Source: a virus (lineage: Duplodnaviria > Heunggongvirae > Uroviricota > Caudoviricetes). Taken from it: a stretch of DNA of 64,000 nucleotides. The position numbers and the translations under genes are program-made. Shown one piece after another: positions 3,154-61,986 of the stretch. The notes under the pieces were generated by a model. The model did no database searches. It was not told the DNA's origin and saw only the letters and a list, made by a program, of their open reading frames with translations. The stretch's first letter is position 1, and every line of letters begins with the position of its first letter. The stretch covers positions 3,322-67,321 of IMG/VR virus record IMGVR_UViG_3300042301_002383. The stretch is one strand, 5' to 3'.

Positions 3154-3351
3154 ATGGAGTACAAAGTATTAACAAGTTCATCCCCCGAAGGATTGACCGA
3201 AAAAGTAAACAAGTACATTAACGAAGGGTTTATTCCCGTCGGTTCTCATCAAGTTGTAACCCAACGAGAAGTAAATCGTTATAGTGGTTCACAACACATG
3301 GACACACTTATTACACAAGAGTATTCTCAAACTTTAATTAAACAAGATTAA
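3154..3351 (+). CDS. hypothetical small protein
   Basis: 65-aa ORF directly after promoter. Confidence 0.5.
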   Translation: MEYKVLTSSSPEGLTEKVNKYINEGFIPVGSHQVVTQREVNRYSGSQHMDTLITQEYSQTLIKQD

Positions 3352-12866: not shown

Positions 12867-13127
12867 TTATTTTAGTATTCTATCTATGAAGTTCTTGATT
12901 GGATTCTTTTTTCTATTGATTTCCCCCGCTAATTGGACAATGTAGTCCTGATAGAGTTGTTCATCAAAGACATTCACCACCATGGACCGATTTAGTTCCA
13001 TTAAGTCCCTGATTGTTAAATCATATACATCTCTCTTCATTATCACCGTATCATTGTAGAACTTATAGGTGATTGTCACAGGTGTGGTCTTATGGATATC
13101 ATCCATGTAGGGTTTCTTTCTTCTCAT
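12867..13127 (-). CDS. hypothetical protein
   Basis: 86-aa ORF; minus-strand promoter (TTTGGAATATAC ... TATATTTG) about 20 nt upstream at ~13130-13170. Confidence 0.55.
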   Translation of the reverse strand: MRRKKPYMDDIHKTTPVTITYKFYNDTVIMKRDVYDLTIRDLMELNRSMVVNVFDEQLYQDYIVQLAGEINRKKNPIKNFIDRILK

Positions 13128-13129
13128 AC

Positions 13130-13170
13130 CACAAATATACGAAATGTTTTTGTATATTCCAAATATATGG
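13130..13170 (-). promoter_or_regulatory. minus-strand promoter (extended -33 GGAATAT(A/T)C + -7 TATATTTG)
   Basis: minus reads ..CATATATTTGGAATATACAAAAACATTTCGTATATTTGTGGTATG. Confidence 0.55.
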
Positions 13171-13173
13171 GCA

Positions 13174-13199
13174 TAAAAAAAGGGACCGTTAAGTCCCTT
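13174..13199 (-). terminator. rho-independent terminator (minus strand)
   Basis: minus reads AAGGGAC-ttaacg-GTCCCTT + TTTTTTT after stop of 13209..13583. Confidence 0.65.
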
Positions 13200-13208
13200 G
13201 TAATTTGT

Positions 13209-13583
13209 TTAGTTAAAATCAAACGGTTCGTTTTTCTGAATATCATATGACATAAAGGTTGGTAGGTTATTAAAATAACCCTCTTTTGCCATCTGAGTCA
13301 CAAAATTTATTGCTTGTTCGTCAGATATATCCTCCTCGTCGTAATTATAATCTAATTCAACACCAACCACTTTACCATCATCCATTTTAATAATCACGTC
13401 AACGCCATCTACGTTATCATCTTTTATTCCAACCGAAATCTTATATTCACTTATACTGGCAAATGCTAAGCTGCCAATTTCCAGTTCCATATTCCCTGAT
13501 TCATTATTGTTTGGTTCCTCTTGTTCATATAGTTTCTTTATATGTTTTCTATCGGATTCTGTAATTGTGAATTTCTGTCTCAT
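13209..13583 (-). CDS. hypothetical acidic protein
   Basis: 124-aa ORF. Confidence 0.55.
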   Translation of the reverse strand: MRQKFTITESDRKHIKKLYEQEEPNNNESGNMELEIGSLAFASISEYKISVGIKDDNVDGVDVIIKMDDGKVVGVELDYNYDEEDISDEQAINFVTQMAKEGYFNNLPTFMSYDIQKNEPFDFN

Positions 13584-13660
13584 TTTTATATTATTTATTT
13601 ATAAATATCTCTTAGTTGGGTAAATGTTATTTCTGTCCTCCGGAATCCCCGTTCGCAGAT

Positions 13661-15418
13661 TTATTGGGGTACGTAATCCCTGTCGATTGTATGGTCGGTT
13701 CTGTAATAAACGTATGTATTTTGACTTGTGAATCCAACCTCTTCGTGACTCCACTCTAATACTCTTGTTAAAAACTCCTCCTCACCCCCGTGTCTTTCAA
13801 CTATCTCATCCATTTCTATGTTCCCTGAGAACCATTGTTGTGCATTGACCTTATTCTTCTTTAGGATATCTTCCATATCATATACGGTATCAACACCATA
13901 TACCTCACTTAAGAAATCAGGAATATTGGATTCATCCTCCTCTTCGTGTTTTTTGTTAACATAATCATAGTACTCCTCCTCTATATCCAATACTTGAAGG
14001 AAATCCCACCCGTCAACAATACCACTTAATACTTCAATAACTTCGTGACCACCATAAATCTCAATAAAGTCATCTCTCATTATATCTGATGATCTTTCAA
14101 CCGCCTCGTCAAATGTTATAACCACATAGTCCTCCACAATATACCTTGAATTATCGAATCTTCTGTTCCTTACATTGATTCTTTCATCATCAATCACATC
14201 AATATTATTACGGTCAACATTTAATGCTGCCATTAATGCATTAATCTTACCCTCATTATTTATACCCGTACTCTTTAATTTATACTTATCCATGTAAGGT
14301 GTCGGTAATCCATCCACATTCTCATAATCATATGTGTCATCATCCTTACCCACGTTTTCTATTCCAGTACTCTCTGTAATAATATTATAAAATACGTTTT
14401 GTAGATTGGTTGGATATACCTTATCAAACATTACACCACCGTCTTTATTAACCCTTAATATACACCTCGCAATTGAAGTGTACGGATGTTCATTCCCCTT
14501 AGTGTCCTTATACGGTTTATTATATATAAGATAGGCAACCTTGGAGTTCTTATCAAATACATTCGATAACAACTTCTTATTCCATTGTGTACCCGGTTCA
14601 CCACCAGTGTATATGTTCTGACATGAATCGTAGAACTGAGATACCGACATCCTTAACTTATCGTCAGGTTTGTCCGTGATGTATAGATATAATGGGTACT
14701 GACCAATCTTATTAATGTTTTGTTGGTAATTTATAATCGGTTCCCTTAACCCAACGTAGTGTTTATCCCTGGTTATCTTATCCACATCCAAATAACCAAA
14801 TGTCTTTGGGAATACCTTTTTAATTGCAGCAATAAATCCCGGTAGACCCGTCGTGTTGTTTGACCATTTGATTTTATCCGCATTAATTGAATAATCCCAT
14901 CCTTTACCATCCTCAGGGTTACCCTGCAATGTGGAATCATTATTTAATCTGCTATCAGGTAATCTAAACGCCTTTGAATAAAACCAAGTATACTTTACCA
15001 ATGTACCAACACTTGAAGTATCTTCACTCATATACGGTAATCGTTTCTCCAAACTTGGAATCGATGCCCTCATAATAACTTTAAGAGGACCATCAACAAA
15101 TGAATAACCTGTCGGATTGTTATTATACTCCTTCCATATCTCGGACTTTCTTAGTTGTTCCACCAACTTATCGGTAACCGATCTAATCAATAGATTTGAA
15201 GCAAAGTCCACAACCTCATCATTCTTTATCTCCATATTCACATTTGGAATCTTGTCGGTGTGTTTTGGAACTTCCCTGTTTAAGTAATCACCTTTATATC
15301 TTTTCTGTATAATATCCTTCATGTAGTCAGGTATATCATCGGCAAGTACTTCCTGAAGATTTTTTGATTCATCAATTAATGACTTGTATTGATGTTCGGA
15401 TATTAATATTCTCATCAT
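13661..15418 (-). CDS. large hypothetical protein, member of N-terminal I-x-I-S-E-x-Q-Y motif group
   Basis: 585 aa; N-terminus MMRILISEHQYKSLIDES shares motif with 21674(+), 24848(-), 27280(-). Confidence 0.65.
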   Translation of the reverse strand: MMRILISEHQYKSLIDESKNLQEVLADDIPDYMKDIIQKRYKGDYLNREVPKHTDKIPNVNMEIKNDEVVDFASNLLIRSVTDKLVEQLRKSEIWKEYNNNPTGYSFVDGPLKVIMRASIPSLEKRLPYMSEDTSSVGTLVKYTWFYSKAFRLPDSRLNNDSTLQGNPEDGKGWDYSINADKIKWSNNTTGLPGFIAAIKKVFPKTFGYLDVDKITRDKHYVGLREPIINYQQNINKIGQYPLYLYITDKPDDKLRMSVSQFYDSCQNIYTGGEPGTQWNKKLLSNVFDKNSKVAYLIYNKPYKDTKGNEHPYTSIARCILRVNKDGGVMFDKVYPTNLQNVFYNIITESTGIENVGKDDDTYDYENVDGLPTPYMDKYKLKSTGINNEGKINALMAALNVDRNNIDVIDDERINVRNRRFDNSRYIVEDYVVITFDEAVERSSDIMRDDFIEIYGGHEVIEVLSGIVDGWDFLQVLDIEEEYYDYVNKKHEEEDESNIPDFLSEVYGVDTVYDMEDILKKNKVNAQQWFSGNIEMDEIVERHGGEEEFLTRVLEWSHEEVGFTSQNTYVYYRTDHTIDRDYVPQ

Positions 15419-17928: not shown

Positions 17929-17995
17929 AACTTCCGACTTTGTCACGTTTTTACTTCCGAGTTTGGACGTGTTTTACTTCCGACTTTGGCATTTA
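17929..17995. repeat. three tandem 23-bp direct repeats (ACTTCCGAsTTTGkmAyGT) in the 77-bp gap upstream of 17427..17915
   Basis: seen directly: ACTTCCGACTTTGTCACGTTTT / ACTTCCGAGTTTGGACGTGTTTT / ACTTCCGACTTTGGCATTT. Confidence 0.6.
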
Positions 17996-18214
17996 AATCC
18001 TTCTTCTTTCTATTTCGTTGTGGAATATATTAACCCATTCATCATGAGTTCTTCCCTCATATGGATTTGGAATCCTCATATTACCATCCCCATCCATACA
18101 CCTAATGATACTCACAATATGGTCGATGGATATGGTATGAATTGGATGTGTTAACCCATTGGCCGTTCTCCATCGAATTGTTTGTTCGGATTGAAAAAAT
18201 TTAAATGGTATCAT
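17993..18214 (-). CDS. FKFF-N-terminal family protein 1
   Basis: 73 aa, starts MIPFKFFQSEQ. Confidence 0.5.
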   Translation of the reverse strand: MIPFKFFQSEQTIRWRTANGLTHPIHTISIDHIVSIIRCMDGDGNMRIPNPYEGRTHDEWVNIFHNEIERRRI

Positions 18215-18650
18215 TTCTAAATGTTAAAGTTATGTCAGCGTTGGTGTGGAATAGTTCACCTACCATATCTTCTTCCCATTTACATTGTTCATAAATAATA
18301 TGATTAATTTCCGCTTCAACATCAATACTCATCCAAGCACCCGCTGCAAGTTCTTGTATATATCTTCTTATTGTTACACTATTTGTATGAACCGCGACCT
18401 CATCAATCTTCCTTCTAATATCATAATCACTATAAGAATTATATTTGTCCCTGTATAATTTGGTCATAACAATAATCAATATATTTTTAACCCTATCATT
18501 TTCCATTAGATTATTATCTACAATATATTTCCACGTGATGTCCAATACACCAATCAATAATGGAACATTTGTTGCATCATCTAATAAACCGGTTAGTTGC
18601 CAATTTATTCTTGTTTCGTTAGCTCTAAAAAATTTGAAATCTTTTATCAT
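18201..18650 (-). CDS. FKFF-N-terminal family protein 2
   Basis: 149 aa, starts MIKDFKFFRANE. Confidence 0.55.
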   Translation of the reverse strand: MIKDFKFFRANETRINWQLTGLLDDATNVPLLIGVLDITWKYIVDNNLMENDRVKNILIIVMTKLYRDKYNSYSDYDIRRKIDEVAVHTNSVTIRRYIQELAAGAWMSIDVEAEINHIIYEQCKWEEDMVGELFHTNADITLTFRNDTI

Positions 18651-18826
18651 ATTTTTATTTTAAAGAAATTAACTATTCTATCTGTGAAAGGTACTTTATT
18701 CTTCTTTAACATCTCTTGATATTCCACCACTTCAATCGCCTCACTCATTAAGATTGGGGTTCCTCTTCTTACCTTATCAGACAATTCTTCAAGACGTTTG
18801 TCTGTGAGTGTTTTTCTAAATTTCAT
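18647..18826 (-). CDS. possible 59-aa protein (MKFRKTLTDKRLEELSDK...NFFKIKI)
   Basis: hand-translated ORF filling the 186-bp gap; its stop overlaps the next start as ATGA; coordinates approximate. Confidence 0.35.
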   Translation of the reverse strand: MKFRKTLTDKRLEELSDKVRRGTPILMSEAIEVVEYQEMLKKNKVPFTDRIVNFFKIKI

Positions 18827-18836
18827 ATTATTTGTT

Positions 18837-19331
18837 TTATATTATATCAGGAAAATTATACATTGGATGTTCGGGATATATTGTATCTCCTTCTATTGTA
18901 TTTCCCTCTTCAATATGTCTGAACAACATAACTTTATATGGTTCACCGTCAAGCATACCTAATCTTTCTTCCGTTACATCAAAGAATATTAATTCATCTG
19001 TGTTATAGAACTCAGGATATGTTTCATCTATTGGTGGGTCGGGATTAACATTACCATAATTCATTTCTATTCTACCACGCCATCTTAAAAACCCTCTATT
19101 CCACAAACTACGTCTTATTCTATCGTGATATGGATTTGCTTCAACATTACTACGAGCATTTTCCCACCCTTGAATATAACATTCCATTTCTTGTAATGTT
19201 GAACCTCTTAAATCTTGTGGTAACAAATTCCAATGGCGATGTGATAAATTGAATGGTGGATTTTGTTGTGTTGGTAATGTATACTCATCACTATATGTGT
19301 ATCCGTTGAGTAGTTTAAATGGTTTTATCAT
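18837..19331 (-). CDS. FKFF-like (variant FKLL) family protein
   Basis: 164 aa, starts MIKPFKLLNGYTY. Confidence 0.5.
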   Translation of the reverse strand: MIKPFKLLNGYTYSDEYTLPTQQNPPFNLSHRHWNLLPQDLRGSTLQEMECYIQGWENARSNVEANPYHDRIRRSLWNRGFLRWRGRIEMNYGNVNPDPPIDETYPEFYNTDELIFFDVTEERLGMLDGEPYKVMLFRHIEEGNTIEGDTIYPEHPMYNFPDII

Positions 19332-19332
19332 A

Positions 19333-19596
19333 CTATTCTGGTTTACCGTCTTCTTCCCATTCTTTAATATCTTTCAAAATCTTATCTGTTAATTCCTTTG
19401 TTTTGTCATCAAGTATTCTCATTAATTCGATATCTCTAGGGTTTGATTCATTCCATGCCGACTCTTCTCTTGCACCTGAATCGTGAATCATATTATTTAA
19501 CACAAACCAACATGACATCTTAATTCTTGTTTCTAATGAAGTTTCTTTTAACAATTCATTTATTGTATTAGATAAAATCTTTCTTGCTTTTGTCAT
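19333..19596 (-). CDS. hypothetical protein
   Basis: 87-aa ORF. Confidence 0.5.
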   Translation of the reverse strand: MTKARKILSNTINELLKETSLETRIKMSCWFVLNNMIHDSGAREESAWNESNPRDIELMRILDDKTKELTDKILKDIKEWEEDGKPE

Positions 19597-19597
19597 A

Positions 19598-19822
19598 TTA
19601 TATTCGATTTAATTGTCTACCTGCGGCAGATGGTGTGTTTAAATAATCTTTATAACTCATTGCAATAGTGAATTCTGTTTCTTGCACCCAATATTCAAAA
19701 TGGTTTGGAAGCATTCTTGTTACACTACAATAGTATCCACGCAAAATAAACGAAGAACCTATTTGTAATCGACATCTATCTTTATATTTGTTCCGTTGAA
19801 AGAACTTGAACTTACTTACCAT
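19598..19822 (-). CDS. FKFF-N-terminal family protein 3
   Basis: 74 aa, starts MVSKFKFFQRNK; motif encoded TTC AAG TTC TTT, unlike TTT AAA TTT TTT in others, so conservation is at protein level. Confidence 0.5.
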   Translation of the reverse strand: MVSKFKFFQRNKYKDRCRLQIGSSFILRGYYCSVTRMLPNHFEYWVQETEFTIAMSYKDYLNTPSAAGRQLNRI

Positions 19823-20298
19823 ACATTTAATACTTTTGCAATCATTAAACCAAAAATAAATGTTACGGTGACAGCAATAAAAAATATACCTATCGCTTCG
19901 CTATGTGTTTCGATAACTGCATTAATCTTTATCTTTTGAAGGAACATCTTAATCTTCATCCACCACTTTGGATTAACGGTTGTTACTCTTGTTGCTTGAT
20001 ACAATTTAATTTGATTATCAGTTCCTCCACCGTTTATTCTTCTTGTAACTTCCTCTTGATTTAATGTTGGTCTAAATGTTTCAAAACGTCCTAACTGTCT
20101 ATCATAATAGTACCTTTCCATCTCATTATTATTAAATGGATTACGAAGTCTATTATATAATTCACTTTGTGCAGTGTGATATAAACGTCTTCTGGTATAA
20201 TAACCTTCAGGTGTGTCGGCATTGAATGAAGCAGTTGCTCGCACATCACCATCCATTATATCTAATGTCCCCTTTTGAAAAAATTTGAAGTCCTGCAT
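19816..20298 (-). CDS. FKFF-N-terminal family protein 4 (C-terminal TM helix)
   Basis: 160 aa, starts MQDFKFFQKG; EEVTRRINGGG matches EELTRRINGG in 59281(+); C-terminal hydrophobic helix. Confidence 0.55.
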   Translation of the reverse strand: MQDFKFFQKGTLDIMDGDVRATASFNADTPEGYYTRRRLYHTAQSELYNRLRNPFNNNEMERYYYDRQLGRFETFRPTLNQEEVTRRINGGGTDNQIKLYQATRVTTVNPKWWMKIKMFLQKIKINAVIETHSEAIGIFFIAVTVTFIFGLMIAKVLNVW

Positions 20299-20690
20299 TA
20301 CTTAATATTTGAAGTATAGAATGTATTTGTAGATATTGTTCCTGTTGTTGTAAACGCTCCACCAATACCTCCCGTAGTTGTTACCGTTCCGGTTGTATTT
20401 GATGTTGTTAAACTAAACCCTGTTGTTGCGGTATTGATTGTTCCACTAAATGGAATTGTGTAAGTACCAGTACCCGGTGTTGTTGTTATAGTATAATCAG
20501 GTATAGTATAGGTGGATGTTGCGTATTGAACTAACCCTGGATTAACTATCCAAGCTGGGTTGGTGGTTGTTGTGCCCCAATTTATTATTCCAGTTCCTGG
20601 CGTTGGTGGATAAGTTCTAAAAATATCCTCCCATTGTTCTGTTAATGTATTTTGTTTATACCCTCTGAAAAATTTGAATTCGCGTACCAT
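20298..20690 (-). CDS. FKFF-N-terminal family protein 5 (Thr/Gly-rich, fibre-like)
   Basis: 130 aa, starts MVREFKFFRGYK; C-terminal two-thirds low-complexity T/G/P-rich. Confidence 0.55.
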   Translation of the reverse strand: MVREFKFFRGYKQNTLTEQWEDIFRTYPPTPGTGIINWGTTTTNPAWIVNPGLVQYATSTYTIPDYTITTTPGTGTYTIPFSGTINTATTGFSLTTSNTTGTVTTTGGIGGAFTTTGTISTNTFYTSNIK

Positions 20691-20712
20691 AATTTCTTTT
20701 ACTATATATATT

Positions 20713-21159
20713 TTACATTTGGAATACTTCGTATTCTTTCATTCCATTTTCTTTTCTTTTATCTTCAATAACATCTTGGAAGTCTTCTAAGAATTCTTCA
20801 ACGTCATCAATACCATAGATTACAAAGTAACTAGTAAATTGGTCTGAACTTCTAACCATAATACTACCTACACCAAGAATTCTCATCCAAAACGGTCTTT
20901 CCATCATTACGGATTTAATTCTATGGAAATATATTTCTCTTGTTGTTACGGAAAACACACCACGACTTTCTACAATACGGTCGTCATAGATATCGTAGGT
21001 CCAACATGCATAATCTAAAATCTTATAGATTGGTATTAAAACTACAAGTGCAATCCAGTAAAATTCTGTTGACATTGCTGCGGATAGTGCAAATCCACCA
21101 ATGAATACCCAAAGAATGTTTATTAGTTGGGATGGTTTAACTGTGAAATCGGGAGTCAT
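20713..21159 (-). CDS. membrane-anchored bacterial PH-domain (bPH_2/DUF304-like) protein
   Basis: 148 aa; two N-terminal TM helices followed by a YdbT-like PH-domain pattern. Confidence 0.55.
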   Translation of the reverse strand: MTPDFTVKPSQLINILWVFIGGFALSAAMSTEFYWIALVVLIPIYKILDYACWTYDIYDDRIVESRGVFSVTTREIYFHRIKSVMMERPFWMRILGVGSIMVRSSDQFTSYFVIYGIDDVEEFLEDFQDVIEDKRKENGMKEYEVFQM

Positions 21160-21160
21160 G

Positions 21161-21601
21161 TTATTTAATTTTAGTGATTTTTACGTTTTTTATGGTGGTT
21201 TGTTTATCATCCTCACCAATTAAGATATCGATTCTATTTTTATATCTTTTGTTCATTACATCTTTAACGGTATAAACTCCGTTATATTTTCCAGCCATTT
21301 TAATTCTAACCTTGGTACCAAATGGCCACTTTTTCTTTAAATCTCTCGAAACGGCAATGATTCTGTGTCTTTCGGGGTTGTCCTTATCTATTTTGAACCC
21401 TGAGGCTGTCAAATGTGGGGTTGAATCTGTTTCCCCTTCCGTTGGTGAGTAGGTTGTAAGGGTAACTGTCTCATAACTAATTGGTTTTCTTACTTCTATG
21501 TATGAATTCGGTACATTCCCGATGTTGATTGACAGTGGGAATAATGACAATAAAATGGTTATTAGTAATGACAATAATATGGTTAATATTGATGTATTCA
21601 T
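21161..21601 (-). CDS. 3D-domain (MltA-like) cell-wall protein with N-terminal anchor
   Basis: 146 aa; hydrophobic N-terminus, then TTYSPTEGETDSTPHLTASG...RIIAVSRD...NRIDILIG typical of 3D domains. Confidence 0.65.
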   Translation of the reverse strand: MNTSILTILLSLLITILLSLFPLSINIGNVPNSYIEVRKPISYETVTLTTYSPTEGETDSTPHLTASGFKIDKDNPERHRIIAVSRDLKKKWPFGTKVRIKMAGKYNGVYTVKDVMNKRYKNRIDILIGEDDKQTTIKNVKITKIK

Positions 21602-21603
21602 AT

Positions 21604-21640
21604 CACAAATATACGAATAGTATTTTGAATATCCAAAAAT
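21604..21640 (-). promoter_or_regulatory. minus-strand promoter (TTTTTGGATATTC ... cgTATATTTG)
   Basis: minus reads TTTTTGGATATTCAAAATACTATTCGTATATTTGTGATATG (ATG = 21601). Confidence 0.55.
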
Positions 21641-21673
21641 ATTATTATTATTTTTAGAAAGTATTTATATACT

Positions 21674-22819
21674 ATGAGGATATCGATTACGGAAGCACAA
21701 TATGAGAAACTAATCCAAGCAAATGAGGTTGTTGGGGTTCCAGAAGGAATTTACGATACTGCAAAATCCATATACAGAAAGTATATTGATAGTTTAGTTG
21801 AAGAAGTGGGTCTACAATTCGGTAATATGAAATTGGGTGGATCTACCGATGTTGGTTTTTCAATTATGGGTGATTATCATGTTGGTGATTTATCTTTTAA
21901 TAGTGTTGATTTTATGGTTACATTTGATTTTGACAAATATAGAAATGTTGAAATTGAACAAATGAGTATTGGTGTTGGTGATAAATTAACAAACGATTAC
22001 AAACTAACATACAAAAAAACTGGTGGTCGTCTTGCTATGGGTGCAACATATCAAGTACCTGAAGATACATCTGAAGAAGATTTAATTAATAGTATTTTAA
22101 AATTTCAAACTAAAACAATATCGGCCATTGCTCACGAGTTGAAACATGCATATGATTTTGATAAGAAACCAACAAGGAATGCGGGTGAAAAAGTTAAGTA
22201 TCATTCTATCGAGAGTCTTATGGTTAGTGTTCGTCCGTTGATGAAATTTAAAAGTATGTTATATTATTCACACGTTGTTGAGGAGAGTGTTAGAAACAGT
22301 GAAATATATACACTAATGAGACTAAAAGGAATCACTAAAAAACAATTTAAAAGTTTCTTAACTAAAACAACTACATACGATTTCTTAAAATATATGATGG
22401 ATTATGATTATGAAAAATTCATTAAGGAGATGTACAATAGTATTCAGGGTATCGAATCTTTTTTAAGTTATGTTAAAATTGATTATGATAATATGACTGA
22501 TGAAGAAAAAGTAAACGCCGCACTGAAAAAGTTTTATGAAATAGTTTCAAGAAGACGTAAAGATTTTCTTAACGATGTGATGATGGATTCACAATCAGAT
22601 TTAATGTTGTTGTTAGCATCTGCACTTGGTATTGCTGATAATATTGTCAAGATGGGTGACAATGAGGCGAAAATTAAAGCAATGAAAAAAATCAACAAAC
22701 ACATTAATAGTTATAATGATTATATTGATTTTTATCAAAAAGAATTATCAGATATTAAAATTTCAACAACAAACACACTTAAAAAACTAGGTAAGTTATA
22801 TAGTTTAGCAGAAGACTAA
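21674..22819 (+). CDS. putative HExxH zinc metallopeptidase with I-x-I-T-E-x-Q-Y N-terminus
   Basis: 381 aa on the opposite strand inside the minus block; AHELKHAYD (HExxH); N-terminus MRISITEAQYEKLI. Confidence 0.6.
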   Translation: MRISITEAQYEKLIQANEVVGVPEGIYDTAKSIYRKYIDSLVEEVGLQFGNMKLGGSTDVGFSIMGDYHVGDLSFNSVDFMVTFDFDKYRNVEIEQMSIGVGDKLTNDYKLTYKKTGGRLAMGATYQVPEDTSEEDLINSILKFQTKTISAIAHELKHAYDFDKKPTRNAGEKVKYHSIESLMVSVRPLMKFKSMLYYSHVVEESVRNSEIYTLMRLKGITKKQFKSFLTKTTTYDFLKYMMDYDYEKFIKEMYNSIQGIESFLSYVKIDYDNMTDEEKVNAALKKFYEIVSRRRKDFLNDVMMDSQSDLMLLLASALGIADNIVKMGDNEAKIKAMKKINKHINSYNDYIDFYQKELSDIKISTTNTLKKLGKLYSLAED

Positions 22820-23145
22820 GGCTCAAATCTCAAAAACCTTATTGTTAGTAAATCGGATGTAATGTCGAATCCCCAACCATCTTCATATTGTGTATTGGCA
22901 TCATGAAATCTTCCGTTTGGTCCTGTTATTGATAATACGGGAACAATAAATCTATTGGGGAATCTATATAAGAATTCGTGTATACCGTCACTTTGAGTTT
23001 CAACAATATCGTATGTGTAATTAGTTAATGGTAATAGACTTGTCCATGACCAAGAAGCACTATCATCGTCCAACGCTTCGATTAAATGTTCTTCAACCTC
23101 ATCTTCATCTTCGTTACCAGAAAAAAATTTAAATGATTTTACCAT
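22816..23145 (-). CDS. FKFF-N-terminal family protein 6 (acidic)
   Basis: 109 aa, starts MVKSFKFFSGNEDEDE. Confidence 0.5.
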   Translation of the reverse strand: MVKSFKFFSGNEDEDEVEEHLIEALDDDSASWSWTSLLPLTNYTYDIVETQSDGIHEFLYRFPNRFIVPVLSITGPNGRFHDANTQYEDGWGFDITSDLLTIRFLRFEP

Positions 23146-23151
23146 ATTATT

Positions 23152-23829
23152 TTATAATCTATAAACAATAGTATCTGAAAAATCTTTTTCGTTTTTTGTT
23201 TCAACTTCTTTTTCAAATCTATGTATGTGTTCTTTCATATCGTCATCGATATCAATATCAATAACCTCACCTCCATTATTAACAAACTTATCAATTTCTT
23301 TTACAATAATATTAATTAAGTCTTCGTTATAATCACTGTACCATTCACCCTCAACCCATCTTTCTTCTAATAAACTATGCATGTATCTTTCAAATCTAAA
23401 GCAATCCGATTGTGATATTTTCCAACATCTTTGTGCTACGATTCTGATTGGTGTGTGAGTCTTGGTTCCTTTTCTTCCTGAACTAATTTCTCTTTGTAGT
23501 TGCTTCATTCTATCCTCAACATCAAATGCAATTCCTATTTTTTTATCAGGAAAAACCCATTTAAAATTTTCAGGTCTTTTGTTATCATGTTTATCAACAT
23601 ACGTTGCAACATATAGAAATGTTAGAATATCATTTCTAAAAAATTCACTGTCTCTTGGTGTTGGGATGCATCCCTTTTCAAAATCTCTTTTTTCTGATAC
23701 TCCACTATAGTGGTCTTTTTTGTGTCTGTAAAATTTTTTATTTATTTCTTTTTCTAACTCTTCTAAGTTTTCTTCTTTGATGATAAATTGTTTAGTTAAA
23801 TCTAATTCATTAGTTTCATTTTGATTCAT
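23152..23829 (-). CDS. hypothetical protein
   Basis: 225-aa ORF. Confidence 0.55.
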   Translation of the reverse strand: MNQNETNELDLTKQFIIKEENLEELEKEINKKFYRHKKDHYSGVSEKRDFEKGCIPTPRDSEFFRNDILTFLYVATYVDKHDNKRPENFKWVFPDKKIGIAFDVEDRMKQLQREISSGRKGTKTHTPIRIVAQRCWKISQSDCFRFERYMHSLLEERWVEGEWYSDYNEDLINIIVKEIDKFVNNGGEVIDIDIDDDMKEHIHRFEKEVETKNEKDFSDTIVYRL

Positions 23830-51331: not shown

Positions 51332-52495
51332 CTAGTTCGATAGTTTTGCCTTTATAGATGGATGTGATTCATACCCATCGATTATGAATTGATGGGGTTG
51401 TAAATTGTTTATAAACCCATCAAATGTATCTTTATGGTGTTCAAAGTGTGCCAACACTAAGGGACTAAAATTTAATGTTGGTAAATTTTTAAATGGTTCT
51501 CTACCGATTTGTTCTTTAGCTTGTTCGATGTGATTCGAATACAGATGAACATCACCTAAGTTACCAATTAATTCATCGGGTATCATATTAACTTCCATAG
51601 CTAGAATTTCTAATAACAAACCATATGATGCAATATTAAATGGTAACCCTAAGAATGTATCTACACTTCGTTGATTCCACATTAGAGATATTGCTCGTTT
51701 AGGTATATTATATGATTCTAACTCTTCGCTCAAACCACCACCAAATGGTACAATATCATCTACCATTGATTTAAATCTTTCCTCACCAACTTTCTTTTTT
51801 AATAGCTCCCACATCTCTTCTCCTGTTAACTTTCTAGTGTACACTTGAAATCCATAATGACAAGGTGGTAAGACCATTTCATCCAATTGACCAACATTCC
51901 AAGCGTTTACAAGTAATCGTCTACTATCTGGATTTGTTTTCAACTCATCAATTAAGTTTTGAATTTGATCAATCCATTTATCACCTTCAACGTATGTATC
52001 ATGTCCGGTTAATGGGTCTTTTATTGTTGTCTTAATTAATGTTTTAGTGTGCCACTCTCTCCATTGTGCACCGTAGATTGGTCCTAACTCACCAAAAATA
52101 TTACAAAATCTTTCATCCGTTTTAATTAAACGAATAAAATTTTCTTTATCCCATGGTTCTCCGTTATTAGACCATAATGAATTTCCTACCCAAGCAGCAT
52201 AACTATTCTCATATCTTTTATAAGCATCACCATCCCAAATGTGACAATCATTATCAACAAGGTATTTGATGTTAGTGTCACCACGGAGGAACCATAACAA
52301 TTCAGTTACCATTGTCTTCCATGCCATTTTCTTCGTTGTCAACAATGGAAATCCCTGTGACATTTTATGTCTAATCTGACGACCAAATACCGATATGGTA
52401 CCAGTGCCAGTCCTATCAGTTTTAATAACTCCATTATCTAAAATGTCTTGTAATAATTCTTGATATTTTGAATCCAATCTATTCATACTTACCAT
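51332..52495 (-). CDS. thyA: thymidylate synthase ThyA homologue with two large insertions
   Basis: 387 aa (ThyA is usually ~264-320); DRTGTGT, ELLWFL.GDTN, catalytic PCH, DVFLGLPFNIASY (Asn retained), GDVHLYSNH; about 50-aa insert after DGDAY and about 45-aa insert after PCHYGFQ. Confidence 0.8.
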   Translation of the reverse strand: MVSMNRLDSKYQELLQDILDNGVIKTDRTGTGTISVFGRQIRHKMSQGFPLLTTKKMAWKTMVTELLWFLRGDTNIKYLVDNDCHIWDGDAYKRYENSYAAWVGNSLWSNNGEPWDKENFIRLIKTDERFCNIFGELGPIYGAQWREWHTKTLIKTTIKDPLTGHDTYVEGDKWIDQIQNLIDELKTNPDSRRLLVNAWNVGQLDEMVLPPCHYGFQVYTRKLTGEEMWELLKKKVGEERFKSMVDDIVPFGGGLSEELESYNIPKRAISLMWNQRSVDTFLGLPFNIASYGLLLEILAMEVNMIPDELIGNLGDVHLYSNHIEQAKEQIGREPFKNLPTLNFSPLVLAHFEHHKDTFDGFINNLQPHQFIIDGYESHPSIKAKLSN

Positions 52496-56161: not shown

Positions 56162-57511
56162 ATGAAGAAAAAAATACTTTTATTATCAGATGATTTAAGA
56201 ATGACAAGTGGTATTGCCACTATGTCCAAAGAATTCGTTTTAGGAACCATTCACAAATATGATTGGATTCAATTAGGTGCGGCAATTAAACATCCAGAAC
56301 TTGGTAAGATAGTTGACATCAATGATGATGTTAGAAAAAGAACCGGTATTAAAGATGCCAATTTAAAAATTATACCATATAATGGTTATGGTGATATTGG
56401 TATATTAAGAAAATTAATCGCTGAAGAGAAACCAGATGCAATTTTACATTTCACGGACCCGCACTATTGGCAATGGTTATATGATAACGAACATGAGATT
56501 AGACAACAAGTCCCAATTTTATTTTATCATATTTGGGATAACTTACCTGACCCATATTACAATAGAGATTACTATGAATGTTGTGATTGGTTAGGTTGTA
56601 TCTCTAAACAAACCTATGGTATCGTTCATCGTGTTGGTAAAACCACAAGGGAAGTTACACATAAACCATTGGAAGATTGGCAAATTAGTTACGTTCCTCA
56701 TGGAATCAATCCTGATGTGTTTAAACCAGTTAAGAAAGTGGATGAAGAATTATCTAAACTTATTCATGGTGATAAGAAATATGATTTCATTCTATTCTAT
56801 AACAATAGAAACATTAGAAGAAAACAACCATCTGATGTGATTTATTCATTTAAATTATTCTGTGACAGTTTACCTAAAAAAGAATCTGATAAATGTTTGT
56901 TATTGATGCACACCAATCCCGTGGATGAGAATGGTACAGATTTAAATGCAGTAATTAATGAGTTATGTCCTAACTACGATGTTAAATTTACCAACGCTAA
57001 ATTAGAACAAGACAAATTAAATGATTTATATAACATTGTTGATTGTACAATCAACATTGCAAATAATGAGGGGTTTGGATTAACGACCGCAGAATCATTA
57101 ATGGCAGGTACACCAATTATTGTTAGCGTGACAGGAGGTCTACAAGATCAATGTGGATTTAATTTTAGTGCTGATGATTATATTGAGGTTGGGACGTTGC
57201 ACAAATCTAAAGGGACACCACATGGTGATTGGGTTATACCTGTTTGGGCCGCAGCAACTAATTTAAATGGATCGGTACCAACACCTTATATCTTTGATGA
57301 TAGGGTTAATGACGATGATGTTGCAGATGCAATTATGACAGTATATAAATGGGGACGTAAAGAAAGAAAAGAAAGAGGAAAGAAAGGTAGAGAATTTATG
57401 AAGAAGAACTTATCTTCTAAAGTAATGTCAGATACTTTTATTGAGGGAATAGAAAAAACATTAAATAACTTTAAACCGAGAAAAAGATTCGATTTATATA
57501 AGATAGTATAA
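56162..57511 (+). CDS. GT4-family (GT-B) glycosyltransferase
   Basis: 449 aa; C-terminal NEGFGLTTAESLMAGTPIIVSVTGG (E-x7-E region). Confidence 0.8.
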   Translation: MKKKILLLSDDLRMTSGIATMSKEFVLGTIHKYDWIQLGAAIKHPELGKIVDINDDVRKRTGIKDANLKIIPYNGYGDIGILRKLIAEEKPDAILHFTDPHYWQWLYDNEHEIRQQVPILFYHIWDNLPDPYYNRDYYECCDWLGCISKQTYGIVHRVGKTTREVTHKPLEDWQISYVPHGINPDVFKPVKKVDEELSKLIHGDKKYDFILFYNNRNIRRKQPSDVIYSFKLFCDSLPKKESDKCLLLMHTNPVDENGTDLNAVINELCPNYDVKFTNAKLEQDKLNDLYNIVDCTINIANNEGFGLTTAESLMAGTPIIVSVTGGLQDQCGFNFSADDYIEVGTLHKSKGTPHGDWVIPVWAAATNLNGSVPTPYIFDDRVNDDDVADAIMTVYKWGRKERKERGKKGREFMKKNLSSKVMSDTFIEGIEKTLNNFKPRKRFDLYKIV

Positions 57512-57512
57512 T

Positions 57513-58763
57513 ATGAGCAAACCAAGTTTATTATTTAGAGGGCCGGTAAAAACAAGAAGTGGGTACGGCGCACACTCAAGAGATTTATTACAAGCACTGT
57601 ATGAAATGAATCTATTCGATATTAATGTTGATAGTTGTATGTGGGGATCAACTCCATTAACGGCATTAGAAGAAGAAAATACATTTCACAAATGGATTGA
57701 AAGCGTAATTGTAACAAGAATAGAACATAGACCAGACATCTATGTTCAAGTTACAGTACCAAATGAATTTCAAACATTAGGTAAATTCAACGTAGGGATA
57801 ACTGCTGGAATTGAAACTACCGTTGCACCTAAAGAATGGATTGATGGGTGCAATAAAATGGATTTAATTGTTACAACATCCACATTTTCGAAAGATGTAT
57901 TGTTATCTACCGTTTACAATGAAACGGAAAACAACACGGGTAAATTAATTAAACAACATAAGATTGAAAAACCAATTAAGGTTTTGTTTGAAGGTGTTGA
58001 TTTGTCAATTTACAATAACGAGTACAAAGGTTTAGATATTGATATTAAAGAGGAGTTCGCATTTCTTTTCGTTGGTCATTGGTTAAAAGGTAATCTTGGT
58101 CAAGATAGAAAAGACATCGGTATGTTAATTAAATGTTTTAGTAAATCATTTGAGGACGTTGAAAATCCACCGGCTTTAGTTCTTAAAACATCTTCAGCAA
58201 CATTTTCAGTTAAGGAAAGAGAATCTTTCAGAAAACGTATTAGTGATTTAGTTAAAGACATTAAAAATCCACCTCCAATTTATTTGTTGTTTGGTGAATT
58301 AACTAACGATGAAATGAATCAATTATATAATCATCCAAAGATTAAAGCAATGATATCATTAACTAAAGGTGAAGGGTTTGGTAGACCTCTATTAGAATTC
58401 ACTATGTCAGGTAAACCTGTGATAGCATCTAATTGGTCAGGTCATAAAGATTTCTTACCTATGGATAAGGCAATCATGGTCGGTGGGTCATTAACTGAAG
58501 TTGATAATAGTGCGGTTGATACGTTTATTATTAAAGGTTCTAAGTGGTTTACCGCAAATTATAATGAGGCTTCGGAGGTGATGAAATTAGTGCATGAAGA
58601 TTATAATAAATTCTTAGAAAAATCAGAAACTTTAAGGATTGAAAATAAAGAAAAGTTTTCGTTAGATAAAATGAGAGAAACATTTAAAGATATGTTTCAA
58701 TTATTCCAAACTAAACCACAGGAACAAAAATTAGTTCTACCTAAATTAACAAAAACTAAATAA
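57513..58763 (+). CDS. GT-B fold glycosyltransferase (GT4-like)
   Basis: 416 aa; GEGFGRPLLEFTMSGKPVIAS; 1-nt spacing from previous gene. Confidence 0.7.
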   Translation: MSKPSLLFRGPVKTRSGYGAHSRDLLQALYEMNLFDINVDSCMWGSTPLTALEEENTFHKWIESVIVTRIEHRPDIYVQVTVPNEFQTLGKFNVGITAGIETTVAPKEWIDGCNKMDLIVTTSTFSKDVLLSTVYNETENNTGKLIKQHKIEKPIKVLFEGVDLSIYNNEYKGLDIDIKEEFAFLFVGHWLKGNLGQDRKDIGMLIKCFSKSFEDVENPPALVLKTSSATFSVKERESFRKRISDLVKDIKNPPPIYLLFGELTNDEMNQLYNHPKIKAMISLTKGEGFGRPLLEFTMSGKPVIASNWSGHKDFLPMDKAIMVGGSLTEVDNSAVDTFIIKGSKWFTANYNEASEVMKLVHEDYNKFLEKSETLRIENKEKFSLDKMRETFKDMFQLFQTKPQEQKLVLPKLTKTK

Positions 58764-58764
58764 T

Positions 58765-59040
58765 ATGGCAAGAGGTAGAAAAAAAATAAAGGATGAATTA
58801 TTACAATCTGTTATTGATAAATTAACAATCGACGACACACCAAAAATTGAAACATACATGCCATGTGAATGGGTGATTCAATTTGATAATGATGAACCAC
58901 AATTATTTACAACCGCAGATGAAACTGTAGAATCACCAGAAGTTATTATTAGAATACAAAATACTAACGAAGGTTATATTAAGTTTACAGACCCAACATC
59001 GGGTAAAACATTTAAATTATTTGCAAGACCAAAAAAATAG
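58765..59040 (+). CDS. hypothetical protein, tandem paralogue of 59043..59288
   Basis: 91 aa; C-terminal GKTFKLFARPKK vs NKVFKLFAREIQ, and VIQFDNDEPQLFT vs FCFQFGDEEPIVFAT. Confidence 0.5.
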   Translation: MARGRKKIKDELLQSVIDKLTIDDTPKIETYMPCEWVIQFDNDEPQLFTTADETVESPEVIIRIQNTNEGYIKFTDPTSGKTFKLFARPKK

Positions 59041-59042
59041 TA

Positions 59043-59288
59043 ATGAACTTTAAATTTTTTCAAAAGGAGGAATTAAAACATAATAATTTTATTGTGTTAG
59101 AACCTACAAGATTTAATCCACAAAATGTTGAGTTTTGTTTTCAATTTGGTGATGAGGAACCAATTGTATTTGCAACTGGTCCTAATGAATGTAGTATTCA
59201 TTTAAGTCCAACAACCAACACCAACATGACGTTCAATGATAATAATAAAGTTTTTAAATTATTCGCAAGAGAAATACAAAATGGTTAA
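59043..59288 (+). CDS. FKFF-N-terminal family protein 7
   Basis: 81 aa; starts MNFKFFQKEELK. Confidence 0.5.
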   Translation: MNFKFFQKEELKHNNFIVLEPTRFNPQNVEFCFQFGDEEPIVFATGPNECSIHLSPTTNTNMTFNDNNKVFKLFAREIQNG

Positions 59289-59523
59289 AAATTTTAAATT
59301 TTTTCATGGGGTAATTAGGAGTAGTTTAACTGCGACATGGACTCATCAAGAGGGAGAGTTGTTTGGTATCGACGCAGAAGAAGAATTAACAAGATTGATG
59401 TCTAATGAAATTGCTAGAGAAATTGACAATAACATTATTGAGGAATTAACAAGAAGAATTAATGGTGGGAATCCATCGATATTTGGGGGTCCGATTATCG
59501 GTTTTAACAATAATGTAGCATGA
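59281..59523 (+). CDS. FKFF-N-terminal family protein 8
   Basis: ATG at ~59281 (MVKNFKFFHGVIRS...) inside track ORF 59236..59523, overlapping the previous stop (ATGGTTAA); EELTRRINGG matches 19816..20298. Confidence 0.5.
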   Translation: MVKNFKFFHGVIRSSLTATWTHQEGELFGIDAEEELTRLMSNEIAREIDNNIIEELTRRINGGNPSIFGGPIIGFNNNVA

Positions 59524-59610
59524 GATGTGAAAGACATAATTGGGACACGGAAGATAGGGAGTGGTGTTGGAAATGTGAAGAATTAACATTAAAAGAAAAT
59601 AAACAAAAAT

Positions 59611-60234
59611 ATGAAGATAAGTTTCGCCATAACAGTTTGCAACGAGTTGGAGGAAATCAAGAGATTAGTTCCGTTCTTATTGAAACACAAAAGGTCTCAG
59701 GACGAGATTGTGATTCTATATGATGACAAGAATGGTAACAAAGAAATATTAGATTTCTTATTACCATACAATAAATTACCTAACGTTCAAACATGGAGAG
59801 GTTTTGATTGGAATAACAATTTCGCAGATTGGAAAAATACTTTAAACGAATATTGTGCTGGTGATTACATTTACCAAATTGATGCTGATGAAATGATTAG
59901 TGAATATATGGTTAAAAATTTGCACGATATATTAGGAATGAATCCTGATGTGGATTTAATATTTGTCCCAAGAATAAACACTGTTGAGGGTTTAACCGAT
60001 AATCATATTAGAAAATGGGGGTGGCATGTAAACGATAAGGGGTGGGTTAACTTTCCGGATGCTCAGGGAAGAATTTACAAAAAGGGAATGACTTGGTATG
60101 GTCGTGTACATGAAAGAATAATTGGCGGTCAAAAATTCGCATCGTTACCAACAGATGACGATGATTATTTTATTCAACACCATAAAACAATAGAACGTCA
60201 AGAAAAACAAAATAATTTTTATCAATCAATTTAA
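59611..60234 (+). CDS. GT2-like glycosyltransferase
   Basis: 207 aa; ISFAITVCNE N-terminus and IYQIDADE (DxD). Confidence 0.6.
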   Translation: MKISFAITVCNELEEIKRLVPFLLKHKRSQDEIVILYDDKNGNKEILDFLLPYNKLPNVQTWRGFDWNNNFADWKNTLNEYCAGDYIYQIDADEMISEYMVKNLHDILGMNPDVDLIFVPRINTVEGLTDNHIRKWGWHVNDKGWVNFPDAQGRIYKKGMTWYGRVHERIIGGQKFASLPTDDDDYFIQHHKTIERQEKQNNFYQSI

Positions 60235-60242
60235 GATATTAT

Positions 60243-60824
60243 ATGAGTAAAATAGAATTTATTATACCAACATACAATAGACCACACCATTTGATGTGTC
60301 TTCTTAATTCACTTTGTGCACAAAGAAGTGACAAGTGGTGTGCACATGTTATTGCCGATTGTCCTCCTGAAGGTTCATTGGATAAAGTTATGGATTATTT
60401 TAAGGATAATGAAAAGATAAAATTTACAATTTTACCTGAACGTTATAATGATTGGGGTCACACCCCTAGAAATTATGGTGTAGAACATTCAACGGAAGAT
60501 TGGATTGTTATGACAGGTGAAGATAATTACTATGTTCCAGTATTCGTTGATACTTTTTTATCTGTTGTTAGTGAAAAAGTGGGATTTGTATTTTGTAATA
60601 TGGTTCATAATTGGAAAAATTTTGAGTATATTGGTATAGATTGTGAACCTTCGTGGGGTAAAATCGATATTGGAAATTTTATGATTAAAAGAAAATTTGC
60701 TAAACAAATGAGATTAAATCCGTCAATTGAACAAGCAGATGGGGTTTATGTTGAAGAATTTAAGGTAAAATTTCCTTATATACAAATAATTAAAATACAT
60801 AAAGTATTATATATACACAATTAA
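60243..60824 (+). CDS. GT2 glycosyltransferase
   Basis: 193 aa; IEFIIPTYNRPHHL, MTGEDNYY. Confidence 0.65.
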   Translation: MSKIEFIIPTYNRPHHLMCLLNSLCAQRSDKWCAHVIADCPPEGSLDKVMDYFKDNEKIKFTILPERYNDWGHTPRNYGVEHSTEDWIVMTGEDNYYVPVFVDTFLSVVSEKVGFVFCNMVHNWKNFEYIGIDCEPSWGKIDIGNFMIKRKFAKQMRLNPSIEQADGVYVEEFKVKFPYIQIIKIHKVLYIHN

Positions 60825-60825
60825 T

Positions 60826-61443
60826 ATGCACGCTACAGCAGAACAAAACGCAAGAAGATTTTTTAACACTTATGTTAATAATAAAAACGGTAATTTTTTA
60901 GAAATAGGATCATATCTAAGTAGTTTTAACATACGGTCATTAGCACCGAATGGTTCTAACTATGTGGGTGTTGATTTAGGTGCCGGCCCCGGTGTTGATA
61001 TTGTTTTAACTGACCCATATGTTTTGCCATTTGGTGATAATTCATTTGACTTTGTTGTTAGTTCATCTTGTTTTGAACATAGTGAATTTTTTTGGTTAAC
61101 ATATATGGAAGTTATGAGAGTATTGAAACCTTCTGGACTGTTTTATTTAAACGCTCCATCAAATGGTGATTTTCATAGATTTCCAGTCGATTGTTGGAGA
61201 TTCTTTCCTGATAGTGGTAATGCATTATCTAATTGGTCAAGACGTAATGGAATGAATACTGCAGTACTTGAACAATATACAAGTGGTGGGGGTACCGACA
61301 TATGGTGCGATTACGTGTCAATATTTATAAAAGATATAGATATGATTAACAATTACCCAAATAGAATAATAACAAATTTTAATGATTATACAAATGGTTC
61401 GGTATTTCCACACGAAACATTATTAAATAAGAAATTATGGTAG
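60826..61443 (+). CDS. class I SAM-dependent methyltransferase
   Basis: 205 aa; FLEIGSY...VGVDLGAGPGVD glycine-rich motif I; FDFVVSSSCFEH. Confidence 0.6.
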   Translation: MHATAEQNARRFFNTYVNNKNGNFLEIGSYLSSFNIRSLAPNGSNYVGVDLGAGPGVDIVLTDPYVLPFGDNSFDFVVSSSCFEHSEFFWLTYMEVMRVLKPSGLFYLNAPSNGDFHRFPVDCWRFFPDSGNALSNWSRRNGMNTAVLEQYTSGGGTDIWCDYVSIFIKDIDMINNYPNRIITNFNDYTNGSVFPHETLLNKKLW

Positions 61444-61985
61444 ATAGATTATATACAATGCGTGATGAAACATACGCAAAAGGTTTGGAGGATTTAATTC
61501 AATATGTTAAACAACATGGAGATACTAAAAAAATGACTATGATTGAGATTGGTTCATATGCTGGAGAATCTACACAAATGTTCTCTAATGAATTTGAGAC
61601 AGTTATTTCAATTGACCCCTACATTAATGATTATGACCCAAATGATATAACTTGTAGTTATATGAAATTAGAAAAAGTTTATGATACATTTAAAGAGGTA
61701 GTTGACCGAAATAATAATATCAAACATATCAGAATGACGTCTGATGATGCAATAGAATCATTAATAGGTATGTCGGTTGATTTTATTTATATTGATGGAT
61801 TACATACCTATGAACAAATAAAAAAAGATATAACGAATTATCTTCCTTTACTTAAACCTAACTGTTTAATTGGTGGTCATGATTACCACGTAAACTGGGG
61901 TGGTGTAGTAAAAGGTGTTAATGAATTGTTAGGTGAACCAGACACAACGTTCTCTGACACTAGTTGGATTAAACTTATAAAATAA
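61437..61985 (+). CDS. class I SAM-dependent O-methyltransferase (Methyltransf_24 / TylF-MycF-like sugar O-MTase)
   Basis: 182 aa; MIEIGSYAGEST ... IYIDGLHTYEQIKKDI ... GGHDY. Confidence 0.65.
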   Translation: MVDRLYTMRDETYAKGLEDLIQYVKQHGDTKKMTMIEIGSYAGESTQMFSNEFETVISIDPYINDYDPNDITCSYMKLEKVYDTFKEVVDRNNNIKHIRMTSDDAIESLIGMSVDFIYIDGLHTYEQIKKDITNYLPLLKPNCLIGGHDYHVNWGGVVKGVNELLGEPDTTFSDTSWIKLIK

Positions 61986-61986
61986 T

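Follow-up and report, generated by a model that had tools for sequence, protein, structure and literature searches.

Nine small genes of the window begin with a common FKFF peptide

The DNA analysed here (the window) is a stretch of 64,000 nucleotides (nt) from a Caudoviricetes virus, positions 3,322 to 67,321 of IMG/VR virus record IMGVR_UViG_3300042301_002383. It is AT-rich (33% GC) and contains nine small open reading frames (ORFs) whose products begin, one to three residues after the initiator Met, with the tetrapeptide FKFF or a close variant, referred to below as the tag. A first-pass annotation, made by a model from the sequence, had singled out these nine ORFs and proposed that the peptide is a targeting or processing signal. 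All nine are present, seven on the minus strand between 17993 and 23145 and two on the plus strand at 59043 and 59281. In a six-frame scan of the window, exactly nine ORFs of at least 45 amino acids (aa) start with M-x(1-3)-FK[FL][FL], eight with FKFF and one, at 18837, with FKLL, and even a relaxed version of the motif is seen in no further ORF. From the six-frame frequency of the tetrapeptide in the window, 0.21 tagged starts would be expected among the 528 candidate starts, compared with the nine observed (Poisson P≈2e-12). The codons vary between the copies, as had been noticed earlier (TTT or TTC, AAA or AAG, and CTA CTC), and the bodies are indeed otherwise unrelated: with the tag removed, BLASTP gives a single match among the nine, the 10-residue EE(V/L)TRRINGG shared by 19816 and 59281 (E 0.006).

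On the minus strand, the 73-aa product of 17993..18214 (MIPFKFFQSE…, motif codons 18205..18194) has orthologues in the related metagenomic stretches L008, L017 and L202 and a weak match to phrog_21416; the start of the gene overlaps the upstream gene by 14 nt, and the upstream stop is a TAA within TTT-AAA. The 149-aa product of 18201..18650 (MIKDFKFFRANE…, motif 18638..18627) has a helical-looking body ending …NADITLTF… and orthologues with the tag retained in L008, L017, L041, L183 and L206. The variant gene 18837..19331 (164 aa, MIKPFKLLNGY…, motif 19319..19308), whose body carries an RMF-like G-W…NPY…W..G motif, is mosaic: its first 20 aa recur in one relative ahead of a different body, and its C-terminal half is identical in another relative, where the start is FKFF. 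The gene at 19598..19822 (74 aa, MVSKFKFFQRN…, motif 19810..19799) has orthologues in L006, L021, L027, L035, L041, L183 and L185, and that at 19816..20298 (160 aa, MQDFKFFQKG…, motif 20289..20278), with a C-terminal transmembrane-like helix and the EEVTRRINGG segment common to 59281, is present on 14 metagenome contigs. The product of 20298..20690 (130 aa, MVREFKFFRGY…, motif 20678..20667) has a repetitive Thr/Gly-rich body, TTTPGTGTYTIPFSG…, which could be fibre-like or a glycosylation substrate. The last of the seven, 22816..23145 (109 aa, MVKSFKFFSGNEDEDE…, motif 23133..23122), consists of the tag, a hypervariable acidic linker and a compact beta domain. The earlier descriptions of 22816 as acidic, of 20298 as Thr/Gly-rich and of 19816 as ending in a hydrophobic helix are correct.

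On the plus strand, within a glycosyltransferase cluster, 59043..59288 (81 aa, MNFKFFQKEE…, motif 59049..59060) ends …KVFKLFAREIQNG and is syntenic in L012, L015, L018, L028, L030 and L170. It is followed by 59281..59523 (80 aa, MVKNFKFFHG…, motif 59293..59304), the mini capsid protein discussed below, whose start is nested in a longer ORF beginning at 59236; it is the downstream Met that matches the family pattern. Immediately upstream lies 58765..59040 (91 aa, plus strand), an untagged paralogue of 59043..59288 (E 1e-6). Both adjacent paralogues end with a …FKLFAR… strand, and 58765..59040 starts with a basic MARGRKK where its neighbour has the N-terminal tag; the body of the 59043 family can therefore exist without an N-terminal tag.

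Tagged genes form tandem arrays in a clade of uncultured giant phages

Exact window proteins recur on metagenome contigs of JGI, ENA and Logan, and homologues lie on related, AT-rich (30-34% GC) contigs of 100-335 kb, the largest of them reaching 235-335 kb, from which we conclude that the lineage is a clade of uncultured AT-rich giant phages. No cultured relative was found among 50,697 phage records by megablast of the region or tblastn of three window proteins. Most window proteins are without a PHROG or Pfam match, and for the nine tagged proteins together with 43 representatives such matches are almost nil. One related IMG/VR contig has six tagged genes, of which some encode new bodies. 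When IMG/VR was scanned with two degenerate DNA patterns of the tag, 34 and 43 stretches matched, and those of low GC belong mostly to the same phage clade. On these contigs the tagged genes stand in arrays of 8-18, the largest being that of L017 (18 tagged genes within 8.5 kb of a 335,630-bp contig), followed by L206 (15), L016 and L041 (12 each) and L008 and L186 (11 each). Among the 120 stretches listed for bacterial and archaeal genomes, the tag pattern gave scattered single matches, no arrays and no clue to the host. A full-text literature search found no relevant description of an FKFF motif, and the literature on conserved N-termini in jumbo phages yielded the SPN3US and T4 capsid-targeting sequence (CTS) work only.

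Altogether, 156 distinct tagged proteins were collected, which fall into 37-41 body clusters by BLAST and are 52-176 aa long (median 110), a single 229-aa exception being a chance match. Body architectures differ from cluster to cluster (helical, beta, Thr/Gly-rich, membrane-anchored, capsid-derived), and the small proteins are mosaic, with rapid exchange between relatives. An RMF-like motif, G-[YFW]..G……NPY……W..G-[WYF], occurs in several tagged bodies (18837..19331 of the window; L017 9336..9758; L006 6911..6609; L021 1996..1763), and one relative matches Pfam RMF with E 7e-4, below the cut-off. Homing-endonuclease-type genes (T5orf172/MUG113, LAGLIDADG) lie in or beside the arrays (window 23152..23829; L008 17609..18925 and 12990..13727) and could drive cassette turnover and mosaicism between relatives.

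The overlap of tagged genes with the gene upstream measures 1, 4, 8, 11, 14 or 17 nt (window 18201..18214; arrays L017, L008 and L206). In about one third of cases the upstream stop is a TAA inside the TTT-AAA of the tag, and the upstream proteins then end …ETI or …DTI. None of the nine window starts has a Shine-Dalgarno (SD)-like sequence in the 45 nt upstream; their leaders are A-rich, a possible sign that the host initiates translation independently of SD sequences. A promoter and terminator scan of the window between 16.5 and 24.5 kb gave signals at shuffle level only.

Selection acts on the peptide rather than on the nucleic acid

The N-terminal sequence logo of the collected proteins reads M-[IV]-[KR]-[PED]-F-K-F-[FL]-[QRKS]-[GK], with the consensus [KR]-x-F-K-F-[FL]-x-G and an invariant core F-x-F-[FL]. 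Codon usage inside the motif follows the background of the genes that carry it (TTT:TTC 75:25 and AAA:AAG 75:25, compared with 76:24 and 67:33 in the rest of the same genes), and within orthologous clusters synonymous changes in the motif are frequent, the sole replacements being Phe to Leu, CTN codons included. Matches to the DNA pattern TTYAARTTYTTY in 0.4 Mb of clade DNA number 179, of which 150 are N-terminal tags, nine are C-terminal, two are internal and in frame, and 18 are others; thus 159 of the 179 lie in the FKFF frame at a protein terminus, and the 18 that fall outside the FKFF frame or the termini compare with a rough chance estimate of 8-10 in that much AT-rich sequence. A nucleic-acid signal would also appear in the other open frame, as L-N-F-F, and does not, which disfavours a DNA or RNA element at gene starts; there is no frame-independent nucleotide conservation of the kind expected of a regulatory element.

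Searches that do not use the motif recover it nevertheless. A body-driven search with the 22816 family gives 21 homologues, and FK[FL][FL] is present in 16 of the 16 aligned sequences (the window protein and 15 others, down to 45% identity), while the acidic linker behind the retained motif is hypervariable. Among 118 homologues of the 59281 family found in the same manner, 117 carry FKFF and one YKFF. Codon usage, reading frame and motif recovery together indicate that the constraint acts on the peptide. Two elaborations of the motif were rejected. An extended form, FKFF…W, is not enriched (27/110, compared with about 22% expected), and an isopeptide-forming, chainmail-like role of the lysine is contradicted by distant family members that have I, T, V, H, N or L in its place.

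These data also bear on a reading in which the peptide has no targeting role and its first eight or so codons are a portable gene-start cassette, spread by recombination or duplication for coupled initiation in an SD-less operon of overlapping genes. The absence of SD-like sequences upstream of tagged starts, the overlaps of 1-17 nt with upstream genes, about a third of whose stops are the TAA in TTT-AAA, and the N-terminal stretches held in common by mosaic genes are all as such a cassette would have them. However, it leaves unexplained the sole tolerance of Phe and Leu codons where other A/T-rich codons would serve equally, the conservation of the motif in genes without overlap (22816, 59043) and the copies at C-termini described below, and the L-N-F-F frame copies expected of a DNA or RNA element are not seen (18 of 179 lie outside the FKFF frame or termini). 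We consider this explanation very unlikely.

The tag is a free handle at either end of the protein

In the AlphaFold2 model of the 22816 family, residues 30-109 form a confident beta domain with a predicted local distance difference test score (pLDDT) of about 90, and the tag and linker (residues 1-26) have pLDDT<50. Foldseek found no structural match for the domain in the PDB or BFVD. The cluster-weighted hydropathy over the six residues after the tag is -2.6 to -1.2, i.e., strongly hydrophilic, and with three hydrophobic residues followed by six strongly polar positions the N-terminus does not have the make-up of a Sec, Tat or lipoprotein signal peptide, in which some 7 or more residues form a hydrophobic core ahead of a cleavage site.

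The motif is confined to chain ends. In 807 distinct clade ORFs comprising 113,848 residues, internal copies of the pattern FK[FL][FLG] number six, about chance level, and the motif lies within the last ~10 residues of 17 ORFs compared with about 0.5 expected. Ten of these 17 end …[DTES]FKFF[RKN]G-stop, and the set includes a conserved membrane protein in three genomes. The gene that follows a C-terminal copy is tagged in some cases and untagged in others. These C-terminal copies argue strongly against explanations that apply only to the N-terminus, such as translation start context, nascent-peptide effects, an N-degron or a signal peptide. The earlier proposal of a peptide-level, recognition-type motif on unrelated small proteins is accordingly borne out by the background codon usage and the conservation in orthologues, but its restriction to N-termini is not, since the motif also occurs at C-termini.

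A conserved protein with an N-terminal membrane helix ends …NKL[TD]FKFFRG-stop in L017 (1173..1640), L019 (2879, minus strand) and L032 (11524..), and in all three the next tagged start, MI[IK]PFKFF.G, overlaps it by 4 nt and places two tag-coding copies 21 nt apart. Frameshifting, ribosome hopping or recombination between these tandem FKFF…GGA copies found no positive evidence; frameshifting and hopping are further disfavoured by the downstream genes having their own ATG and by other C-terminal copies that precede untagged genes. In the tagged membrane proteins the tag is at the end opposite the membrane helix, an end that is probably cytoplasmic.

Terminal position and disorder also speak to whether the carriers are a single paralogous family whose bodies have diverged past recognition, the N-terminal strand being the last conserved element of a common fold. 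Some clusters do have further short segments in common (…NADITLTF…, the RMF-like motif, RRINGG), and 58765 and 59043 are paralogues. Against this, the 37-41 BLAST clusters have clearly different architectures, the one confident model places the tag outside its folded domain, and the motif is also C-terminal. A common descent of all carriers seems to us scarcely probable.

The most conserved tagged gene encodes a permuted mini capsid protein

The 59281 protein matches the Pfam Gp23 family (PF07068) at 25.2 bits (cut-off 24.4), and its family profile aligns to residues 263-310 of T4 gp23, the second E-loop strand and spine helix, with E 1e-4; residues ~13-61 of the window protein are homologous to this part of gp23-type major capsid proteins (MCPs). 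In fuller orthologues there is also an N-arm segment, and a second copy of the motif, FKFFRG, stands at the C-terminus. A library-wide hidden Markov model (HMM) search with the family yields 989 relatives. About 100 are small proteins whose match starts at the tag, and dozens of the small relatives are tagged at both start and end. The most complete picture of the layout comes from P0195, a complete gene at the same position of the glycosyltransferase cluster as 59281. It reads MKN-FKLFVGY, residues 12-75, residues 75-110 and KTNI-FKFFRGYNL-stop, in which residues 12-75 correspond to residues 389-452 of the full-length MCP P0266 (48% identity, E 2e-21) and residues 75-110 to residues 85-120 of this MCP (47% identity, E 5e-11). 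The order of these segments relative to the MCP implies a circularly permuted mini capsid protein composed of N-arm, E-loop and spine helix with a tag on both sides. Judged from these alignments, 59281, the most conserved of the tagged genes, is a fragment-derived, circularly permuted mini capsid protein. It does not have a complete HK97 fold with A-domain and P-domain sheet: the proteins are 80-140 aa long and contain only the E-loop and spine helix, to which the N-arm is added in the fuller orthologues, and the order of these elements is permuted. The AlphaFold2 model of the monomer is a single helix with floppy ends.

A second tagged family (L016 1197..1685, L017 5576..6049, L041 5456..5923, L206 4634..4173) also appears to derive from a capsid protein. 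It contains …RRMAGRTIAQDLVPVQPLGPP..FHILRNSLYG, resembling the gp23 N-arm region, and three members, L016 1197 and L017 5576 among them, match the first ~60-90 positions of the Gp23 profile with E 4e-4 to 1e-3, below the cut-off. In T4, the N-arm region that it resembles overlaps the Gol peptide.

Both 59281 and 59043 sit in a conserved cluster of glycosyltransferase, epimerase and methyltransferase genes (window 56162..63632), and the synteny around the mini capsid gene is the same in the distant relatives L048, L170 and L211. This position hints at a possible link between the capsid-like proteins and glycan synthesis.

In the double-tagged relatives, the N- and C-terminal variants tend to match, FKLL occurring with FKLL and FKFG with FKFG, as might be expected if the F-x-F-F strands paired with each other and tagged proteins co-assembled without a receptor into a matrix, condensate or inner body, cross-linked by the double-tagged mini capsid protein. 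In favour of such pairing, beta-aggregation is a strong tendency of short F/K-rich peptides, the motif is found at both ends of one protein, and the monomer model leaves the tag disordered. However, the sequences behind the co-variation are few and phylogenetically related, intragenic gene conversion would give the same pattern, and four residues are very short for specific self-recognition. Such homotypic pairing is, in our estimate, distinctly unlikely.

A terminal docking handle, possibly for capsid loading

We propose that FKFF is a terminal short linear motif that docks fast-evolving proteins onto one partner, most plausibly the capsid-assembly system, a reading that we favour tentatively and with less than even confidence. 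The motif would be specific to the lineage and would have to stand at a free end of the chain, mostly the N-terminus but in some proteins the C-terminus. A linker that is polar, variable and presumably flexible would connect it to small, unrelated, fast-evolving domains. As a handle common to all tagged proteins, it would dock each of them on one and the same partner, probably by way of an exposed aromatic beta-strand with which it extends that partner. The partner would most likely be the capsid-assembly system of gp23-type giant phages, so that the tag would direct a changing assortment of small proteins to the inside or the surface of the prohead in the manner of the T4 CTS or an encapsulin targeting peptide, and the double-tagged, permuted mini capsid protein could be a bivalent adaptor or nucleus. 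We rank the capsid system first because the clade has gp23-type capsid sequences, because the carrier with the strongest conservation derives from a capsid protein and is bivalent for the tag, and because both known systems with the same logic load cargo into HK97-fold shells.

One parallel is the set of T4 internal proteins, which have only a capsid-targeting sequence in common (PMC3012670; PMC5694885). As with the T4 CTS of IPI-III and Alt, a short N-terminal peptide is all that is common to diverse, rapidly evolving small proteins in phages with gp23-type capsids, and the loci are hypervariable between relatives (PMC3012670; PMC5694885). The FKFF carriers likewise have a short N-terminal peptide on unrelated small phage proteins. 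In contrast to the CTS, FKFF also occurs at C-termini and is thus not strictly N-terminal, has no sequence similarity to the T4 peptide and is not followed by an [LI]-x-E protease site; its carriers number dozens per genome rather than the handful in T4. In the encapsulins, short terminal targeting peptides of cargo proteins bind the N-helix and P-domain of an HK97-fold shell (PMC11664910). They resemble FKFF in being conserved short peptides at either terminus, joined by a flexible linker to unrelated cargo, and one FKFF-tagged protein is itself assembled from parts of an HK97-fold capsid protein, namely N-arm, E-loop and spine helix. However, FKFF is aromatic and basic where encapsulin peptides are Gly/Leu-rich, and its carriers are phage genes that do not lie beside a shell gene as encapsulin cargo genes do. 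In eukaryotic pathogens, the host-translocation motifs RxLR and PEXEL are tiny N-terminal motifs on hundreds of clustered, unrelated, fast-evolving small effectors. The FKFF proteins share with them a tiny conserved motif near the N-terminus that marks otherwise unrelated, clustered, fast-evolving small proteins, but RxLR and PEXEL belong to the secretory pathway and eukaryotic hosts and follow a signal peptide, whereas FKFF stands at the extreme terminus.

Several findings weigh against the capsid reading. The first-pass annotation had offered a capsid-targeting or prohead-protease signal; the targeting part gains a circumstantial link to the capsid from the two tagged families built from pieces of gp23-type MCPs, but a T4-like processing site is not supported, [LI]-x-E being found within 20 aa after the tag in 19 of 136 proteins compared with 36 of 136 in a control stretch. 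Acidic proteins make up 62% of the tagged set, and transmembrane-like helices are present in one tagged family and in several C-terminally tagged proteins, an objection tempered by the existence of giant-phage ejection proteins with transmembrane-like helices (PMC5694885). The arrays of 10-20 co-oriented, overlapping small genes resemble early or accessory regions and not structural modules. The mini capsid gene lies within the glycosyltransferase cluster and does not adjoin a capsid gene, and a full-length capsid gene was not found in the ~0.9 Mb of DNA searched, ~0.4 Mb of it lineage DNA around the arrays. For the second capsid-like family, a PDB search with the profile does not reach T4 gp23, and its support consists of the sub-threshold Pfam matches only.

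The same docking motif could instead address a partner other than the capsid, namely a cytoplasmic hub of host or phage (a chaperone, an AAA+ protease adaptor, the ribosome, the sliding clamp or the inner membrane surface) that recruits takeover or anti-defence proteins. In T4, gp43, gp33 and gp55 use a very short hydrophobic C-terminal motif on a divergent, unstructured linker, which lets unrelated proteins use one clamp hub (PMC2988020). The FKFF carriers have the same architecture of a terminal short hydrophobic motif on a divergent linker. A hub of this kind would also suit the resemblance of the arrays to early or accessory gene blocks, the RMF-like body family, which suggests the ribosome as a target, the mixed isoelectric points of the tagged proteins, and the position of the tag opposite the membrane helix, at the presumed cytoplasmic end. 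However, the T4 clamp motif is hydrophobic and acidic and the bacterial one QLxLF, whereas FKFF is hydrophobic and basic; PHROGs and Pfam reveal no DNA-metabolism domains in the bodies, be it for replication, repair or transcription; and there are far more FKFF carriers than clamp ligands. Neither does a non-capsid hub account for the capsid origin of the most conserved tagged gene and its motif at both ends, and among the 120 stretches listed, bacterial and archaeal genomes have no motif arrays. We regard a non-capsid hub as a serious contender, although a rather unlikely one.

In its most specific form, the capsid reading would be a cargo-loading system in which the terminal F-K-F-F docks dozens of interchangeable small effectors onto the double-labelled, permuted mini capsid protein and thence the prohead, so that virions would deliver a strain-specific cocktail of proteins with their DNA, much as secretion systems recognize effectors by a signal; we think it unlikely that every part of this scheme holds. 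The general principle of a common terminal targeting peptide is already known. What appears to be new is the FKFF sequence, its use at N- and C-termini alike, how many carriers each genome has and the double-tagged, permuted mini capsid protein. If FKFF is a targeting signal, it would reveal a large, hitherto unseen repertoire of effector candidates comprising about 40 families and roughly 8% of the window genes, provide a one-line sequence rule for spotting such candidates in metagenomes, and supply a handle of seven residues for fusion to reporters or cargo. The mini capsid protein is unusual in itself, in that contact-making elements of the HK97 fold have been excised and rearranged, and it is a concrete candidate for an adaptor or receptor. 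Even with a non-capsid partner, strong selection for one peptide on many unrelated proteins would point to a central hub of the infection cycle in an abundant group of uncultured giant phages.

Away from the tagged genes, the window encodes at 51332..52495 a thymidylate synthase homologue that, at 387 aa, is of unusual length and contains an insertion absent from the PHROG profile.

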